Part shown: positions 9,961 through 17,732 of the stretch, in pieces
Position numbering within the stretch: the first letter of the stretch is position 1
Layout: each line of letters begins with the position of its first letter
Sequence record: NC_031081.1
DNA from: Escherichia phage Envy
Strand: one strand, 5' to 3'
Length of the DNA stretch: 45,206 nucleotides
Notes under the pieces: generated by a model
What the model was told of the DNA's origin: nothing
Seen by the model: the letters and a program-made list of their open reading frames with translations, nothing else
Database searches by the model: none
Made by a program: the position numbers and the translations under genes

Positions 9961-10536
9961 ATGTACGGCGAATATGAAATATCCGGTAAACAATTCCACC
10001 TGGCGGCAATGATAGCAAGCATCGAGTTTGACCAATGGCGCTTAAAGTCCGACGCGTGCAAGCAAAGCCGACTGGTCGGTGTGCTGGGCGAAATGTTTGC
10101 GGGCATGTACCTTGAAGGGCAAGCAGGCGGGCGCAGTTGTATACCGCAAGGTTTGCTCATGCGTACCGGCTTGTTTAGTGCCAATACCATTGATCGCGGC
10201 GATATCATCATGGTCGGCAAGCGCAAGGTGAAGTCCGGTCCCGACTTCCGCGAGCATGTGATCGATGCCGTCTGGACCTACGAGGTTAAAGCCACCAGCG
10301 GCATTCGCCGCGGACTGGTTGAGGCACGTTGCGCTCGCGAGTATCTTGCCCGTCGAGTTGCTGGTGTTATCCTGGTGAGCGTAGATTTCGGACAACATAA
10401 CGCGCACGGCGTGATTGAAGATATCGCGGAACCATACGTCATTGTTAATGACTGGCCCTTAGTGGAAGTGGAGGGAAAGGAGTATTACGAAAGCCCGTTG
10501 GTGCGGCGCAAAATGGCCTGGGAAAACTCAAACTAG
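9961..10536 (+). CDS. hypothetical protein (191 aa), weak PD-(D/E)xK-like D...EVK signature
   Basis: AGGA RBS; IDAVWTYEVKAT segment. Confidence 0.55.
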   Translation: MYGEYEISGKQFHLAAMIASIEFDQWRLKSDACKQSRLVGVLGEMFAGMYLEGQAGGRSCIPQGLLMRTGLFSANTIDRGDIIMVGKRKVKSGPDFREHVIDAVWTYEVKATSGIRRGLVEARCAREYLARRVAGVILVSVDFGQHNAHGVIEDIAEPYVIVNDWPLVEVEGKEYYESPLVRRKMAWENSN

Positions 10537-10566
10537 AAAAAGGGGCCGCATGGCCCCTTCTATTTA
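10537..10566. terminator. bidirectional rho-independent terminator between convergent genes
   Basis: AAAAAGGGGCC-gcat-GGCCCCTTCTATTTATTT. Confidence 0.65.
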
Positions 10567-12981
10567 TTTCTTCAACGCCGCGATCTCGGCCTTCAAATCC
10601 TCCACCTGCTTATTGAGATATTGAACACACCCCATCAAGTCCATTACGATCGGGTTAACGTCGATGGATGGGCGGTCCGTCATCTTCTCCCCGATCTTGT
10701 TGCCGTCTTCGTCGAGAATATCCTCGATCGGGAACTCGTGGTGCTTAACGTACTGCGGCGCAATTAACTCCGCTTCTTCGGCGATAATACCGAAGCGCTG
10801 GCGGGCCTGCTCATCATCCTTATACACGAAGTTAACAAGGCGCTGGCTGTTAATGCGGTCCATAGCTTCGCTTGCGTCCGCATCGGCAATATCTTTCTTA
10901 TACTCGCGCCCTGATGTGCCTTGCAGCGCGATAGTCCCCGATGCGGTAGTCGGGAAGTTAAGCATAATTTCGCCGGTACGGTTCCCATCCTTACGTCGCA
11001 TAAACAGGCGAAAATGTCGAGTGCCGCTCTTGTCTAGTGCCGGTTCGAAGAACGTCCTACCGCCTACGACGTCGTTCGGCACGGTTTCGCCTACGGTGTA
11101 GTACGGTTCGAATGCAAATTGCAGGTAAGACCCGCGGCTTACTGCCAGGCTACCAACGACATCTGACCCTGAACTGTTCACCGTAAACTTGCCCGGCAAG
11201 GTCATCTCGCCTTTGGTGTTAAAGTCGATGCCTGAACTCTGCGCCGTCTCCAGGTTAGTGATCGCCAGGCGGGCGTAAGTCTCACCGTCGATATTCGCAC
11301 GGACGCGCAGCTTTGCTTCCGAGTGTAAAGAAGTGCCAACACGATATTCAGACACAATGCTTCCGCCGTCTGCCGTAGTGCCCGCTGGCGGTTTAGTGGC
11401 GTCGCCGTTGATTACCGACCACGACGTATTAGCGGCGGCGAATCCGCCTGACGCTCGAATAACCCACACGCCCATGAAGTTATTGGGGCGCAACTCCGAT
11501 ACGGTCCGGCCATAGATCGCGTTGACCTTCGAGGCGTCCATGTTAATGATGCCGTAGGAGACTGCGCCGTTACCAACAGGTAGGTTGCCTGGCGACCGAT
11601 ATTGCGAAGCCGCTCCACCAGCCCCGTGGAACGCGCCACTTTCATGGTTGATAATACTTGCGGCCCCGCCGCCGTGTAATTCGACGCGGCCTGTGATGTT
11701 AGGTGCTCCTGATTCGTAGATATACCCATCGTTGCCACTTTGCCCGCCGTCGCCCCTGCCGAACAAGCCGAATATGGACCCAGGCTGAACGCCATTACGG
11801 TCCGGCACTCGGAAGGTAGTTGTGCCGTCACCCGTAGAATACTTTCCGCGCTGATTTGGGTTTGCCAGCCAGGTCTCGTCACTAATTGGCGACAGCATTT
11901 GCGCATACGCCCAAAGCTCAGGCCAATCAGCTCGGTTTAACAATTGACCGTCGGACACCACTTCGTAAGGTTGAATATACGCGCGGCTGTCCCGTAAATG
12001 GAAATCACCTACGCCATAGTTCATGACGCCGTTCATTGTAGGGCCGACAGTGCCGGTGTTGATCAGATTCTGCACCCAGCGCTTTGTCGTGGCGTCGTAG
12101 TCACCAACAGGGTCGCCAGCCAGTGGTGTTGCCCCGTCCGGGCGAACGTTAAGCCAGGCTTGCGGTTTGTCGGTGAGTCCCGCCAGGTTGCCTGATTTTG
12201 TTAGCAAGTTATCCGCGTTAACGCTTTGCGCCCACTCCTCGGCCTGATCGCGGAATCCCTGCGCGGCTGTGCTGGCAGCTTGCGCGTCCGTCTTCGCGGT
12301 GTTGGCCTCGTCCCTCATAACGCCGGTGTCAGTCTTGATCTGGTTCGTCTGGTCTTTGATGGCCTGCGTATCAGTCTTAATCTGGTCCGTCTGCGTCTTG
12401 ATGGTATTGGTGGCGTCGTGGATAGCCTGCGTATCCGCCTTAATCTGGTCAGTCTGCGTCTTGATTGTATTGGTATCGTTTTTGAAGCCTTCGGCCTCAT
12501 CCCGAAATCCTTGCGCTGCGGATTTCGATGCTTCGGCTTGCGCTGCGAGGTCGCGCATCTCAACGGGGTCTACGTTCTTAAGCAATTCCGACAGGTATCC
12601 CCATGACATTCCCTGCATGACTTGCCCGTTAGGTAGCGTCACGGTGATTTCTTCAGCGTCGCCGAAGATTGCACGCCAGTTGTTTTCATCTGCGATCATC
12701 AATCGCAACGCTTTCTGTGCCTGTACGGTAACGCCCATCGTTGCCAGCGACATGGTATCGCGCTTAACACCATCCCAAGCAAGGCCGGTTGCCGTTGGGC
12801 CGTCGAACGGCAACACTAGCGTAAGCGCCGTGTTACTTTCGATTGATGCGATCGCCACTGTGTAAGGCACTTGTCCTACCACCAGCGTTAAGAAGTCGCC
12901 AGCTTTAAACGCGGTAAACGTTGTGCCGACTCCTACTACCGCCGTGCTATTGTTCGTTACGGATAGCGTACCCGCTGCCAT
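10564..12981 (-). CDS. tail fiber protein with C-terminal intramolecular chaperone (peptidase S74-like)
   Basis: about 805 aa from ATG at 12981 (GAGGA RBS); repeat-rich coiled coil, Gly-rich domain, C-terminal region typical of self-cleaving chaperone domains. Confidence 0.75.
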   Translation of the reverse strand: MAAGTLSVTNNSTAVVGVGTTFTAFKAGDFLTLVVGQVPYTVAIASIESNTALTLVLPFDGPTATGLAWDGVKRDTMSLATMGVTVQAQKALRLMIADENNWRAIFGDAEEITVTLPNGQVMQGMSWGYLSELLKNVDPVEMRDLAAQAEASKSAAQGFRDEAEGFKNDTNTIKTQTDQIKADTQAIHDATNTIKTQTDQIKTDTQAIKDQTNQIKTDTGVMRDEANTAKTDAQAASTAAQGFRDQAEEWAQSVNADNLLTKSGNLAGLTDKPQAWLNVRPDGATPLAGDPVGDYDATTKRWVQNLINTGTVGPTMNGVMNYGVGDFHLRDSRAYIQPYEVVSDGQLLNRADWPELWAYAQMLSPISDETWLANPNQRGKYSTGDGTTTFRVPDRNGVQPGSIFGLFGRGDGGQSGNDGYIYESGAPNITGRVELHGGGAASIINHESGAFHGAGGAASQYRSPGNLPVGNGAVSYGIINMDASKVNAIYGRTVSELRPNNFMGVWVIRASGGFAAANTSWSVINGDATKPPAGTTADGGSIVSEYRVGTSLHSEAKLRVRANIDGETYARLAITNLETAQSSGIDFNTKGEMTLPGKFTVNSSGSDVVGSLAVSRGSYLQFAFEPYYTVGETVPNDVVGGRTFFEPALDKSGTRHFRLFMRRKDGNRTGEIMLNFPTTASGTIALQGTSGREYKKDIADADASEAMDRINSQRLVNFVYKDDEQARQRFGIIAEEAELIAPQYVKHHEFPIEDILDEDGNKIGEKMTDRPSIDVNPIVMDLMGCVQYLNKQVEDLKAEIAALKK
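12290..12500. repeat. about 33-bp periodic direct repeats inside tail fiber gene (encode TQTDQIKTDTQAIKD-type heptad repeats)
   Basis: repeated GTCTTGATCTGGT/CGTCTGCGTCTTGAT units. Confidence 0.55.
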
Positions 12982-13002
12982 AGCTAAATCCTCATAAATT
13001 GG

Positions 13003-13030
13003 TTGCAATCCTGGTTGAGCGGTGTAATAC
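13003..13030 (+). promoter_or_regulatory. sigma70-like promoter (TTGCAA-16-TAATAC) for the lipoprotein gene, preceded by ATTGGTTGCA
   Basis: hexamers upstream of AGGAGA RBS and ATG 13062. Confidence 0.45.
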
Positions 13031-13061
13031 TAAAACTCACCCAAATATAGGAGATGATACC

Positions 13062-13280
13062 ATGAAAACCTTAATTATGATTTGTGCGGTTCTTTTGTCC
13101 GGTTGTGCCAACATGCCCGCTAAAGTCTGCGACGCCACATACCAGAATAGCGGCATGGATTATGCGGTACCTGTGTATGGTGTTGCGGACTTCTCCGGGC
13201 ATAAAATGCTAAGGGCGGGTTATCCGTTTAGCTTCCAGTACGTGTCTGTAGACCATTTCAAAAGCACAACCTGCAAATAA
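13062..13280 (+). CDS. small lipoprotein (72 aa), candidate superinfection-exclusion protein
   Basis: MKTLIMICAVLLSGC lipobox; AGGAGA RBS; own promoter and terminator; opposite strand between tail fiber and tail tip genes. Confidence 0.6.
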   Translation: MKTLIMICAVLLSGCANMPAKVCDATYQNSGMDYAVPVYGVADFSGHKMLRAGYPFSFQYVSVDHFKSTTCK

Positions 13281-13301
13281 GCCCCTTTCGGGGCTTTCTT
13301 C
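13281..13301 (+). terminator. rho-independent terminator
   Basis: GCCCC-tttc-GGGGC then TTTCTTC. Confidence 0.6.
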
Positions 13302-13974
13302 AATCATAATTGGCAGTGTTAATCGCCATAATCGCGTTGCCGTTGTTAGTATACCCCACCACATCCCCCGTGGCGTTCCCTGACGACGCTGCCGATATAC
13401 GCGTTCGCGACCCATCAAATCTGGCCCCCGTGTACGCCGTTACCGATATTACCTGCGGCTGGCCCTGCACAAAAAACCGGATCAGCGTAGACCCCAATAT
13501 TCCCGGTGCGACGGCGTAGCTGCCGTTTAGCGTCTGATCAATGTTAATCCCCCCGTTAGCGCCAGGCGACCCGACGGTAACTAAATCGCTCAGTACGCGA
13601 CTCTCATTAGTAAGCACTAGCTTCCCCGTCTTATCCCAAATAGCGAAGCCCCACCGCGGAAGGGTCTGTGGGAATATGGCAAAGATGTAAGCCGTCATCG
13701 TGAAGCCTTGCCCGAATGGATTGCTGGCGCTCACCTTCACCACATTACCAACGCGAGAAGACCCTACGACGGTCGGCTGGGCGGTGTGCGTAGTTTTCAC
13801 AAACGCTATTGCAGGGTAGTCACCGCCCAAATTAATATCGGCAGCCGCCGACTGCGCAGTGCCGTTAGCCGAAGACCCAACAACCACACGGCGGAATAGA
13901 CAAAACGGCGTCGATTCTGGCGTGATAAACGGGTTGCCGTTTGGTAAGTCAATCAACGCGCCGTAATTAGCCAT
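13300..13974 (-). CDS. hypothetical tail-associated protein (224 aa)
   Basis: track ORF; start overlaps stop of upstream gene. Confidence 0.5.
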   Translation of the reverse strand: MANYGALIDLPNGNPFITPESTPFCLFRRVVVGSSANGTAQSAAADINLGGDYPAIAFVKTTHTAQPTVVGSSRVGNVVKVSASNPFGQGFTMTAYIFAIFPQTLPRWGFAIWDKTGKLVLTNESRVLSDLVTVGSPGANGGINIDQTLNGSYAVAPGILGSTLIRFFVQGQPQVISVTAYTGARFDGSRTRISAASSGNATGDVVGYTNNGNAIMAINTANYD

Positions 13975-14276
13975 TATGCTCGCTCCACAAAAACAATAAC
14001 GTCACATTCAGATGCGGAGTAAACCCCGCCACCTACCGCACTTGCCGCGGAAACCGTGATAGTGTTCCCGCTGGCGGTTATTCTGCGGCCTGGCCCGACC
14101 GCGCCTTTATCCAGTGCGACCACGTATCCGACCTTCATCCCCGCCGGTACAGGGAATGACCATGCGCCTGATTTTTGTCCTTCCGCAAGATGAATCCTTC
14201 CGATCACGCTTACCGGTTTAATGCCGTAGTTGTTTGGGCGTCCTTGCGCGTCCCACGTTGCGATACCGAATGCCAT
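13974..14276 (-). CDS. hypothetical tail-associated protein (100 aa)
   Basis: track ORF directly downstream of J-like gene; GAGG RBS. Confidence 0.5.
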   Translation of the reverse strand: MAFGIATWDAQGRPNNYGIKPVSVIGRIHLAEGQKSGAWSFPVPAGMKVGYVVALDKGAVGPGRRITASGNTITVSAASAVGGGVYSASECDVIVFVERA

Positions 14277-14285
14277 AAATAACCT

Positions 14286-14312
14286 CGTTAAAAAGGGGCC
14301 GAAGCCCCTATA
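14286..14312 (-). terminator. terminator/attenuator hairpin after J-like gene
   Basis: AGGGGC-ttcg-GCCCCT followed by TTTTAA on minus strand. Confidence 0.45.
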
Positions 14313-17300
14313 CTACCAGCTACCAGTAAGCTCACCAATCTGCACGCGGAGAACGCCGTTTCCGTCCTTCACGCTGATTCTTGTGTTCGTCTGTTTCATC
14401 CCGCCGCCGCTACCGGTGCCCAGGTTGATAAACGTTCCATCTTTCCCTAAGCGCCAGCCGCGCGTGCTGCCGTCGTAGTTATTCGATTGCAGCGTGTCTG
14501 TTATCTGCGCGAAGTTGATGGACGCGTTCTTGATGCGTGCCGTGTCGATATACACCGCGCCACCGTCCACAATAAACGCAGACGACAGCGTCCCATTGGA
14601 CGGATGCATGATGTAGAACTGGTCCGCCTTGAACGCAATACGCGATTTAACCGCGTTGCCAGACGTCACAACGGAAAGCTGCATACCCGCATCATAATAA
14701 GTCCCGTTATATGTCACGCCAGCCTTAAGGCTATACGTGGCGCTACCACCAGAGTGGTTAAACGAAGACGTCATCTTCTGCTCGATCGCGGCGGACTGCT
14801 GACCGAACTGTGCCGCGACCTGGGTCTTATACTCCGCCAGAGCGCCCGCTACGTCCGCCGTTGCCGTTTGCACTGACTGGATGGCGGCTTCCTGTTCCGA
14901 AAACTTAGCGGCAACCGTTTGCTGGTACTGGGCGAACGCTTGTTCCTGCGTACTCTGCGCGGTCTGCAACGTGTGGATTGCCGCTTCCGCATCGTCAAGG
15001 CGAGTACCGATCAACGTTTCCAGTTGCGCTACCGCCTGGTGGGCATCGGCCGCCACGTTATACGCGACCGAGATTTCTGCATAAATCCCCTTGTACTCGG
15101 CGCGGGCGTTAAACAATTGCTGTGCGTCGGTGAGCATAGCCTCATAAATGCCTTGCGGCATGGTGTCGATCGCTTCCTGGAAGCGTTTACCGTCCTCAGA
15201 AGTCAAGAACTCGTCGTCCAGCCCCTTCATGTACTCGTCAACATTGTCACTCACCTGCCCTTCAAACGGGGCCGACCAGTCCGACAGGTTGCCGATTTTA
15301 TCCGCTACACGGGCGCGCAACTGCTGATAGATGCCGAACTCCAGCGACGTTTGCGCATACTCCGACCCCGGGTATGGGACGTTGGTTAGGAATTTCCATT
15401 CCGTTTCACCCGTCTTGCGAACTTCAAGCTCGGTGTACGAAATATCCGTCGCGGCGTTGTTGTGGTTCCACTTCCACAAAATTTGGTGAAGGCCCGAAAT
15501 CGCGTTGGTGATGATAGGCGCGTTAAGACCGCCGAGACGACCTTCCACCGGCGTGATAGCGGACGACACCCACGGAGATGAAATCTCGCCCATACCGATC
15601 GCGCGGACGCGTGCCTGGTAGTTACCGGAGAACACGTTAGGGATGTGCGCCCCATTCGACGCCGTGCGTGGGATATTCACCCAGTCGTTACCCCACTGGA
15701 TTTCCATATTCTGAAGGCTGGTACGCCTCCACTGGATTTCATACACCACGGCATCCTTCACCGGAGGGAATACAATATCCACGTTGGTGATTAGCTGCCC
15801 TTGCGATGAAATCTGCGACGGGGTGATGGTCACGGATTCCGGCCCCTTCATTACCCCGTCAGGCACTTGCGTAAAGATACCCGGATCAAGGCGCGCGCCA
15901 TTATCAACGGCATCATACTTGCTATCGTTGTACTCAATCCCGCGCACCGAGAAAGTGCTCGTAGAGTCGTCATACTCCAGGTCGGTGATGCGGAATTTCT
16001 GCAACTGGATATCGTCGCCATCAACGCAAAACGGCTGGTCAGGAATAGGGTTGGCGTCCAGTGCGGTTTTTAGCGTTACCTTGTTGCCGTTGACGCTGGC
16101 GATCTCGCGAGTCTCCACATTACCGCTATCGGTGCGTACCAGGAACTTATCGCCAGGGCGGAATGTGATTTCGCTGTCCGTGTTCAGCACGGTACGAGTT
16201 CCGGGGTCCGACAACAGTCGACCGCCGCGCGTCTCAAAACCGCCAGAAATGTTTGTATCCGCGATCGCGACTACGCTACCGGGAATAAAGAATAACCCTT
16301 CCATGCCAACTTTAAAGCTAACTTGCTGGTCAAGCTGGTTGGAAATTAGCGCCCAGTGCCCGCGACGCTGCGCTTCAGATTCACGCGTACAGCCGATCGC
16401 CGTAATATCGAGACGGTTAATCTTATGGCGGCGTACCAGTTCGACACGTTGCCCCGTTGCGATAGCATCTTCATAGTGGTTCTTCGGGTTGCCGTATGCT
16501 ACTGCGAACGTGGAGTACCGAGTTTTCTGGCTACCGGACGCGTAGTCGAAGCGCCCATCAATAACCGAGGCGTTGGTGATAGTGTGCGACACTGCTGCGA
16601 CCGGTTGGTCACTGACGATATTCAACATCTGGTTGCCCCACCAGGTCATTCCGGCGAAGATGGCGGCTAAATCCTTAAGCACGGTCCAGGCATCCGTCTG
16701 TGACTGAATGTACATATCATTCTTAAAGCGGATTTCTCGACCACCGTTGCCGTCGCTGACCAACTGATCGCAGCGCTGCGCAATCTGGTAGAGCGCGTAT
16801 CGGTTTAGCATTTGCGGTTTGATACGCCGACCGAGGCCGAAGCGCTCAGTAATACAAATATCGTACCAGTGCCACGCAGGGTTATCCGTCCATGCGCGTT
16901 TAAACGTGCCGTCCCAGTCCCCGGAATAGGTATGATTAATCGGGTCGTAGTTGTTCGGTATTAGAACTTTGCGGCCTTTGCACTTGATGGACACGCGCGG
17001 GATGTTCTGGAACGCTTTGGCGTCGAACTCCACAAACAACAGCGCGGTTAGCGGGTAACGCAGGCGGGCGTCAATAATCTCAGTGATGGACTGCACCCGG
17101 ATATCATTAACCACTTTCGCCGATGTGGAGTCTGCCGTTATGCGGTGCACCTCCACGCGCCAGCCGGTATTCACGTTCGGCGGTAATTCGATGCGGTGGT
17201 CGCGCTCATACAGCGACATTGTTTTACCAACGGCAGCGAAGGTAAACTCACGCGGATCAGCGTTGTCCGTATACACAACGATCTTATAGTCAATGCGTCC

Positions 17301-17732
17301 GCCAACCAGGTCGCCATTATCTTCGTTAGTGTACAGGGCCGGAATTCCGATGCGAATGCGAACGGCGTCCAGACTGGTATCGTTAATCTGGCGTACCCAC
17401 GGCGTACCGTTTTCCAGTTTTACGCCGACAGATTGCTCACTTTCCACCGCTGAAAATCCGTGGATCACATCCTGGTGCTGTGTGCCGGGGCGGAACTCCA
17501 CACGCGCGCCAGGGAAGTTTTCGGACAAGTCAGCGTTCTGGATCGGCGTTCCATCAAGGTAAACACGCTGCCGCAATTCGCTGGCGCTGGTAATACTTTC
17601 GAATTCCCCTTCCCCCAGCGCAAGCAAGATGCGGATTTTAGCCAGCGAATGCAGGCTATCTGGCGTCTCCTGTGGGGTGTGCTGTTTGCCGCCGCCGCCT
17701 TTATGCCCTGTGACGTCGTAGATAATCGTCAT
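14313..17732 (-). CDS. host specificity / central tail fiber protein (lambda gpJ-like)
   Basis: 1139 aa; N-terminus MTIIYDVTGHKGGGGK...; follows I-like gene. Confidence 0.85.
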   Translation of the reverse strand: MTIIYDVTGHKGGGGKQHTPQETPDSLHSLAKIRILLALGEGEFESITSASELRQRVYLDGTPIQNADLSENFPGARVEFRPGTQHQDVIHGFSAVESEQSVGVKLENGTPWVRQINDTSLDAVRIRIGIPALYTNEDNGDLVGGRIDYKIVVYTDNADPREFTFAAVGKTMSLYERDHRIELPPNVNTGWRVEVHRITADSTSAKVVNDIRVQSITEIIDARLRYPLTALLFVEFDAKAFQNIPRVSIKCKGRKVLIPNNYDPINHTYSGDWDGTFKRAWTDNPAWHWYDICITERFGLGRRIKPQMLNRYALYQIAQRCDQLVSDGNGGREIRFKNDMYIQSQTDAWTVLKDLAAIFAGMTWWGNQMLNIVSDQPVAAVSHTITNASVIDGRFDYASGSQKTRYSTFAVAYGNPKNHYEDAIATGQRVELVRRHKINRLDITAIGCTRESEAQRRGHWALISNQLDQQVSFKVGMEGLFFIPGSVVAIADTNISGGFETRGGRLLSDPGTRTVLNTDSEITFRPGDKFLVRTDSGNVETREIASVNGNKVTLKTALDANPIPDQPFCVDGDDIQLQKFRITDLEYDDSTSTFSVRGIEYNDSKYDAVDNGARLDPGIFTQVPDGVMKGPESVTITPSQISSQGQLITNVDIVFPPVKDAVVYEIQWRRTSLQNMEIQWGNDWVNIPRTASNGAHIPNVFSGNYQARVRAIGMGEISSPWVSSAITPVEGRLGGLNAPIITNAISGLHQILWKWNHNNAATDISYTELEVRKTGETEWKFLTNVPYPGSEYAQTSLEFGIYQQLRARVADKIGNLSDWSAPFEGQVSDNVDEYMKGLDDEFLTSEDGKRFQEAIDTMPQGIYEAMLTDAQQLFNARAEYKGIYAEISVAYNVAADAHQAVAQLETLIGTRLDDAEAAIHTLQTAQSTQEQAFAQYQQTVAAKFSEQEAAIQSVQTATADVAGALAEYKTQVAAQFGQQSAAIEQKMTSSFNHSGGSATYSLKAGVTYNGTYYDAGMQLSVVTSGNAVKSRIAFKADQFYIMHPSNGTLSSAFIVDGGAVYIDTARIKNASINFAQITDTLQSNNYDGSTRGWRLGKDGTFINLGTGSGGGMKQTNTRISVKDGNGVLRVQIGELTGSW

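Follow-up and report, generated by a model that had tools for sequence, protein, structure and literature searches.

A Cor-family lipoprotein gene, probably for superinfection exclusion, beside the receptor-binding genes of the Dhillonvirus Sloth

The window, by which we mean the whole stretch of 45,206 nucleotides that was analysed, is 100% identical to Escherichia phage Sloth (KX534339.1; window coordinate = record coordinate - 7643), a Dhillonvirus with the human bladder microbiota as its source. At 13062..13280 on the + strand it carries an ORF of 72 codons, with an ATG start and a TAA stop, the product of which (MKTLIMICAVLLSGCANMPAKVCDATYQNSGMDYAVPVYGVADFSGHKMLRAGYPFSFQYVSVDHFKSTTCK) is annotated in KX534339.1 (CDS ANY29935.1) as 'super-infection exclusion protein, cor'; PHROG and NCBIfam matches, a family alignment and an AlphaFold2 (AF2) model all bear on its identity as a prolipoprotein. 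All genes flanking cor lie on the - strand. On one side, across an 80-bp intergenic region, is the divergent lateral tail fibre gene (10564..12981), which was delimited from its annotated CDS limits and recognised by matches to PHROG tail fibre families and a Peptidase_S74 chaperone domain. On the other side lie a gene for a 224-aa gp23-like protein (13300..13974; PHROG 425, 'membrane associated protein', E 4.6e-70), a gene for a 100-aa gp22-like protein (13974..14276; PHROG 557, 'outer membrane protein', E 1.1e-32) and the J-like central tail fibre / tail tip gene (14313..17732; Pfam FNIII-A_GpJ, Phage_Tail_Tip and Phage-tail_3; PHROG 31). The original prediction, of a 72-aa protein with a signal peptide and lipobox encoded opposite to its neighbours, agrees with the ORF, its translation and the LSGC motif with Cys15. 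It also placed the gene between the tail fibre and tail tip genes, which is right for the tail fibre and the tail tip module, but the 224-aa and 100-aa genes separate cor from J itself.

The N-terminus of the protein (MKTLIMICAVLLSGC) combines a basic Lys2, a hydrophobic core and a lipobox (L12-S13-G14-C15), so that residues 1-14 form the signal peptide and a mature protein of 58 aa, which includes Cys23 and Cys71, begins at Cys15. The residue at +2 after the lipobox cysteine is Ala and not Asp, the inner-membrane retention signal, and the presumably lipidated protein is consequently predicted by the E. coli Lol rule to be sorted to the outer membrane.

The sequence evidence establishes cor as a genuine gene that belongs to the Cor family. 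Its product matches PHROG 1119 ('Cor superinfection exclusion protein') at E 2.7e-27, with residues 1-72 on profile positions 1-75 of 78, and the NCBIfam equivalog NF047972 ('phage exclusion lipoprotein Cor') at 57.4 bits against a cutoff of 31, such that the match to curated Cor models is full-length. By tblastn, 237 phage records contain a full-length counterpart, mEp and HK lambdoids with a Cor annotation among them, and T1 Cor was matched at E 2e-14 (47.9% identity) and phi80 Cor at E 2e-9 (42.9%). The Cor proteins of T1, phi80, N15, HK022 and mEp167 (PHROG 1119, NF047972) are slightly longer (75-77 aa, against 72 aa in Sloth), and share with that of Sloth the lipobox, two conserved cysteines and the RAGYPF motif, at 43-47% identity. 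Sloth is a Dhillonvirus, unlike the Drexlerviridae or lambdoid carriers of Cor. No Pfam family matched Cor or the neighbouring 100-aa and 224-aa proteins, and a single-sequence search of the PDB with Cor gave no match.

A word-indexed protein search with Cor returned 6 close relatives, while an exhaustive HMMER search among 1.84 billion representatives returned just 16 clusters at E <= 1e-3, which marks the family as compact; one of these 16 representatives (P0016), a low-complexity repeat protein, was judged to be a chance match and rejected as a Cor relative. A secreted protein of 410 aa (P0020; E 2.8e-4) contains five tandem modules of ~67 aa that resemble the Cor mature domain and share with it the RAGY motif and Cys pair, although a tandem array would be odd for a Cor-like fold. 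Across a 24-sequence Cor alignment, Cys23, Gly53 and Cys71 are invariant, and Ala52, Phe56, the lipobox Cys and the RAGYPF core are nearly so; the lipobox Cys is present in every full-length member, and none of the aligned members has Asp at +2. Sloth Cor possesses both the conserved Cys pair and the RAGYPF core. Additionally, comparison of cor with its alleles in bob and PaulFeyerabend gives a crude dN/dS of 0.16-0.20, a sign that the protein is under purifying selection. The gene is already annotated and already known, being an ordinary member of a well-described family.

The original prediction also furnished cor with a strong ribosome-binding site, a promoter of its own and a terminator. 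A Shine-Dalgarno sequence (AGGAG, 13049..13053, +) does indeed lie 8 nt 5' of the ATG, and is retained as AGGAG or GGGAG in relatives, while the evidence for the other two signals is mixed. A candidate sigma-70 promoter read by eye (13003..13031, +) comprises TTGCAA (-35), a 17-nt spacer ending in TGT (an extended -10 TG) and AATACT (-10), and shows no variation among four Dhillonviruses (Sloth, bob, Oekolampad and PTXU06), yet a sigma-70 consensus scan reported no promoter 5' of the cor ATG, the candidate falling below threshold with 8/12 consensus positions. Between the convergent cor and 224-aa gene sits a GC-rich hairpin of 7 bp (AAGCCCC-TTTC-GGGGCTT, 13281..13298), with fold energies of -12.4 kcal/mol on the + strand and -14.0 on the - strand (z -3.2 and -2.8), which is possibly a weak bidirectional terminator; it has no canonical U-tract, and its short T-run accounts for the failure of the terminator scan to call it. 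Since the scans called neither element, both rest on manual reading and conservation, and we consider a cor promoter and terminator plausible, if weak by consensus criteria, with the function and timing of the promoter inferred from sequence.

A strong terminator-like hairpin, bidirectional, GC-rich and of 8-10 bp with T-runs on both strands, occupies 10538-10561, between the 3' ends of a + strand gene (9961-10536) and the tail fibre gene. Given that this hairpin closes the upstream + strand operon, cor would need a local promoter. An Rfam search of 12500-13800 gave no match, and the conserved intergenic region is therefore not explained by any known structured RNA. A further sigma-70-like match (13074-13101, - strand; CGGACA, 16-nt spacer, CATAAT; 9/12) lies within the 5' end of cor and is directed at the lateral tail fibre gene; it could be a tail fibre promoter or a chance match, the promoter scan having found 2 matches against 1.3 expected.

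The order J / gp22-like / gp23-like / cor is common to Sloth, T1 and phi80, such that cor of Sloth occupies the cassette location known from FhuA-dependent phages. An extended cor cassette has been described in T1, HK022, N15, ES18 and phi80, all of which use FhuA (PMC13164509), and the BASEL collection has it in no phages other than Drexlerviridae and Dhillonvirus members that use FhuA (PMC13164509, citing Wietzorrek 2006 and Maffei 2021, PMC8594841). The notion that cor was recently inserted at this site does not hold, given that the J/gp22/gp23/cor cassette, of which it is a fixed element, is conserved and also present in T1, phi80 and N15 (PMC13164509). Association with FhuA as receptor is likewise shared with Cor of the T1/phi80/N15 type. 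Gene orientation is more variable: T1 and Sloth have cor and the gp23-like gene in convergent arrangement, whereas in phi80 cor is co-oriented with J and in Sloth it is opposite to J.

The putative receptor-binding proteins (RBPs) of Sloth are close to those of phages with an established receptor. The 224-aa protein is 100% identical to gp20 of JLBYU37, 57% to phi80 gp23 and 52% to its T1 counterpart, and the 100-aa protein is 100% identical to a JLBYU37 protein and 70% to phi80 gp22; in Teewinot both are 98% identical to those of Sloth. Sloth Cor is itself 94.4% identical to both the JLBYU37 and the Teewinot alleles. JLBYU37, JLBYU60 and Teewinot have been found experimentally to require FhuA, and loop L8 in particular, and Envy and bob are reported to be FhuA-dependent (PMC10373560). 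Because its putative RBPs are identical or nearly identical to those of FhuA-dependent phages, Sloth almost certainly uses FhuA, with cor adjoining its receptor-binding genes. Published modelling put forward the gp23-like 'hand-like' protein as the one that binds FhuA (PMC12309495); the 224-aa protein of Sloth, which is partnered with cor in the cassette, is a candidate RBP component for FhuA binding. Dhillonviruses carry at least two alleles of it that are only ~52% identical (Sloth vs bob), a distance similar to that between Sloth and T1 or phi80. Cor, by comparison with the ~52% of the 224-aa protein, is 86% identical between Sloth and bob.

An AlphaFold2 model of Cor, built from a 21-sequence alignment, has a mean pLDDT of 84 (~95 for residues 21-70) and takes the form of a small, four-stranded beta structure. 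Its top Foldseek match in the PDB is 8a60_B, the T5 lipoprotein Llp in complex with FhuA, albeit at a weak E of 0.088, and in a viral structure library a Dhillonvirus Cor is followed by lipoproteins from siphophages, T5-like ones among them. Llp could be reached in sequence space only with the Cor-family profile (E 1.6e-4), a score that stems in part from the generic lipoprotein signal peptide. The predicted fold of Cor, an Llp-like small beta fold, thus appears closest to that of FhuA-bound T5 Llp. This is in keeping with published comparisons, in which Cor and Llp have the same fold, disulfide included, at ~20% identity (PMC9586334; bioRxiv 10.64898/2026.03.26.714494; PMC13164509). The binding of Llp to FhuA folds EL7 and EL8 inward (PMC9586334), and a published AlphaFold3 model (ipTM 0.84) places a T1-like Cor against FhuA from the periplasmic side (PMC13164509). 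There are limits to the likeness: T5 Llp (PDB 8A60 chain B, 7QJF) is only 20-24% identical to Sloth Cor, its RBP partner is pb5, T5 belongs to a different phage family, and the allosteric mechanism has been demonstrated for Llp only and not for Cor.

We consider it highly likely that cor encodes a superinfection-exclusion lipoprotein of the FhuA-dependent Dhillonvirus Sloth, acting through Llp-like inactivation of FhuA, and that it very probably switches off the phage's own receptor in infected cells. The original prediction had pointed to the receptor-blocking Llp and Cor lipoproteins, and that reading is supported by family matches, the existing cor annotation, lipoprotein features, cassette context, receptor-binding genes as in a FhuA-dependent phage and an Llp-like predicted fold. 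In the mechanism that we envisage, the 58-aa mature domain would adopt its small beta fold with Cys23 and Cys71 probably forming a disulfide clamp, and, from the outer membrane, would bind directly to FhuA at its periplasmic face. On the model of T5 Llp, the extracellular face of the receptor may then be rendered allosterically unable to bind phage RBPs, and incoming FhuA-dependent phages would fail at adsorption or DNA ejection. Progeny might thereby be spared loss on the debris of lysed cells. The strict L8 dependence of the close relatives of Sloth (PMC10373560) fits with an infolding of EL7/EL8 of the Llp type. Our literature search turned up no experiment with the Cor of Sloth or of any other Dhillonvirus, exclusion assays included, and a 2026 preprint describes the molecular mechanism of Cor as still unresolved (10.64898/2026.03.26.714494).

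It could be argued that Cor excludes FhuA phages indirectly, via a complex with, or remodelling of, OmpA and porins, or by interfering with a post-adsorption step such as DNA ejection. According to its title and to the papers that cite it (PMC11893012, PMC13164509), Arguijo-Hernandez et al. 2018 implicates other outer-membrane proteins in exclusion by Cor, which suggests that a simple one-to-one complex of the Llp type may be incomplete; a published statement that the mechanism of Cor awaits elucidation and the low identity between Cor and Llp point in the same direction. However, the predicted fold best matches Llp in its FhuA-bound state, the T1-like Cor model sits on the periplasmic side of FhuA, and Uc-Mass 2004, as cited by others, reported that Cor inactivates FhuA functions generally, and we therefore regard an indirect action as improbable. 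Still less likely is a target other than FhuA, such as another TonB-dependent transporter. BtuB-using phages with Cor-like proteins have been noted (PMC13164509), and PTXU06, which is reported to depend on BtuB, encodes a distant Cor-like lipoprotein at the same position (PHROG 1119, E 3e-7), yet identity between the Sloth Cor mature domain and the PTXU06 protein amounts to only 23%, in contrast to the 94% identity of Cor, and 100%/98% of the RBP genes, shared with FhuA-dependent JLBYU37/Teewinot (PMC10373560).

The small size and lipoprotein signal of Cor also recall Rz1-type spanins, raising the question of whether cor is a lysis o-spanin, or else a small ORF with a lipobox-like motif arising by chance. 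We rejected both readings, which strike us as exceedingly improbable, on the grounds of tail-gene context and Cor homology: cor lies in the tail/RBP module, with no adjoining i-spanin, its full-length match is to Cor families, and it is kept in 237 phage records under purifying selection. Furthermore, no spanin or lysis family was found among the PHROG, Pfam and NCBIfam matches of Cor. As the gene for a probable receptor-blocking lipoprotein cognate to FhuA, cor confirms the place of Sloth in the FhuA-using class of Dhillonvirus, a result that carries little weight beyond correct annotation. More broadly, the presence of cor is useful for predicting a receptor from a genome, and helps to anticipate cross-exclusion in cocktails of FhuA phages of the T1, T5, phi80 or Dhillonvirus type.

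The 80-bp intergenic region is almost invariant, and the signal peptide MKTLIMICAVLLSGC identical, across Dhillonviruses of the FhuA, LptD and BtuB types. Comparison of window 12982-13109 with the corresponding loci of Oekolampad (L004, 3955-4135) and PTXU06 (L005, 3954-4134), and with a further locus (L006, 3961-4140), reveals DNA homology between Sloth and other Dhillonviruses that runs from the 5' end of the tail fibre gene through the intergenic region into the lipoprotein gene for its first 45-48 nt, breaks at the lipobox Cys codon and resumes at 14293-14441, at the 3' end of J or slightly inside it. In translation, one signal peptide is fused to three different mature domains: that of Cor in phages of the FhuA type (Sloth, bob and PaulFeyerabend), an Rtp45-like domain, unrelated to Cor, in Oekolampad, which is LptD-dependent (PMC12685063), and WF5505, and a distant Cor-like domain in PTXU06. 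In 011D5, the Rtp45-like domain follows a signal peptide that differs by one residue (MKTLIVICAVLLSGC). Rtp45 and Oekolampad gp26, LptD-directed superinfection-exclusion lipoproteins (PDB 9RPS), resemble Cor in Dhillonvirus genomic slot and orientation, and in the logic envisaged for it, the receptor being blocked from the periplasmic side (PMC12685063); gp26 moreover has a promoter region and signal peptide identical to those of Sloth cor. It differs in that its mature domain is unrelated in sequence to Cor (PHROG 4281) and its target is LptD and not FhuA.

Since homology ends at the Cys codon and resumes at the J 3' end, the exclusion domain and RBP genes look like a swappable unit. A potential explanation, which we hold to be about evenly balanced on the sequence comparison, is that the lipobox serves as a recombination joint, such that the mature exclusion domain would be exchanged along with its cognate RBP gene(s), the signal-peptide sequence and the end of J acting as homology arms. 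Exchange of RBP/exclusion cassettes is already known (PMC8594841), and we found no description of the exact lipobox junction in the literature consulted. An exchange joined at the lipobox could aid the engineering of receptor and exclusion swaps in small siphophages.

The cassettes also differ in layout. In those of the LptD and BtuB types, the RBP genes share the strand of the lipoprotein gene, lie 3' of it and are opposite to J (Oekolampad, L004 4057-5246; PTXU06, L005 4056-5212), such that the single RBP gene of Oekolampad is placed unlike those of Sloth, and the gp22- and gp23-like genes of PTXU06 (PHROG 557 and 425) are inverted relative to those of Sloth, which, as in T1, are on the J strand. 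In the same-strand layout the conserved promoter region also precedes the RBP genes, and, if a single transcript covers lipoprotein and RBP genes, production of the exclusion protein would coincide with that of a structural protein, which would bear on the timing of exclusion.
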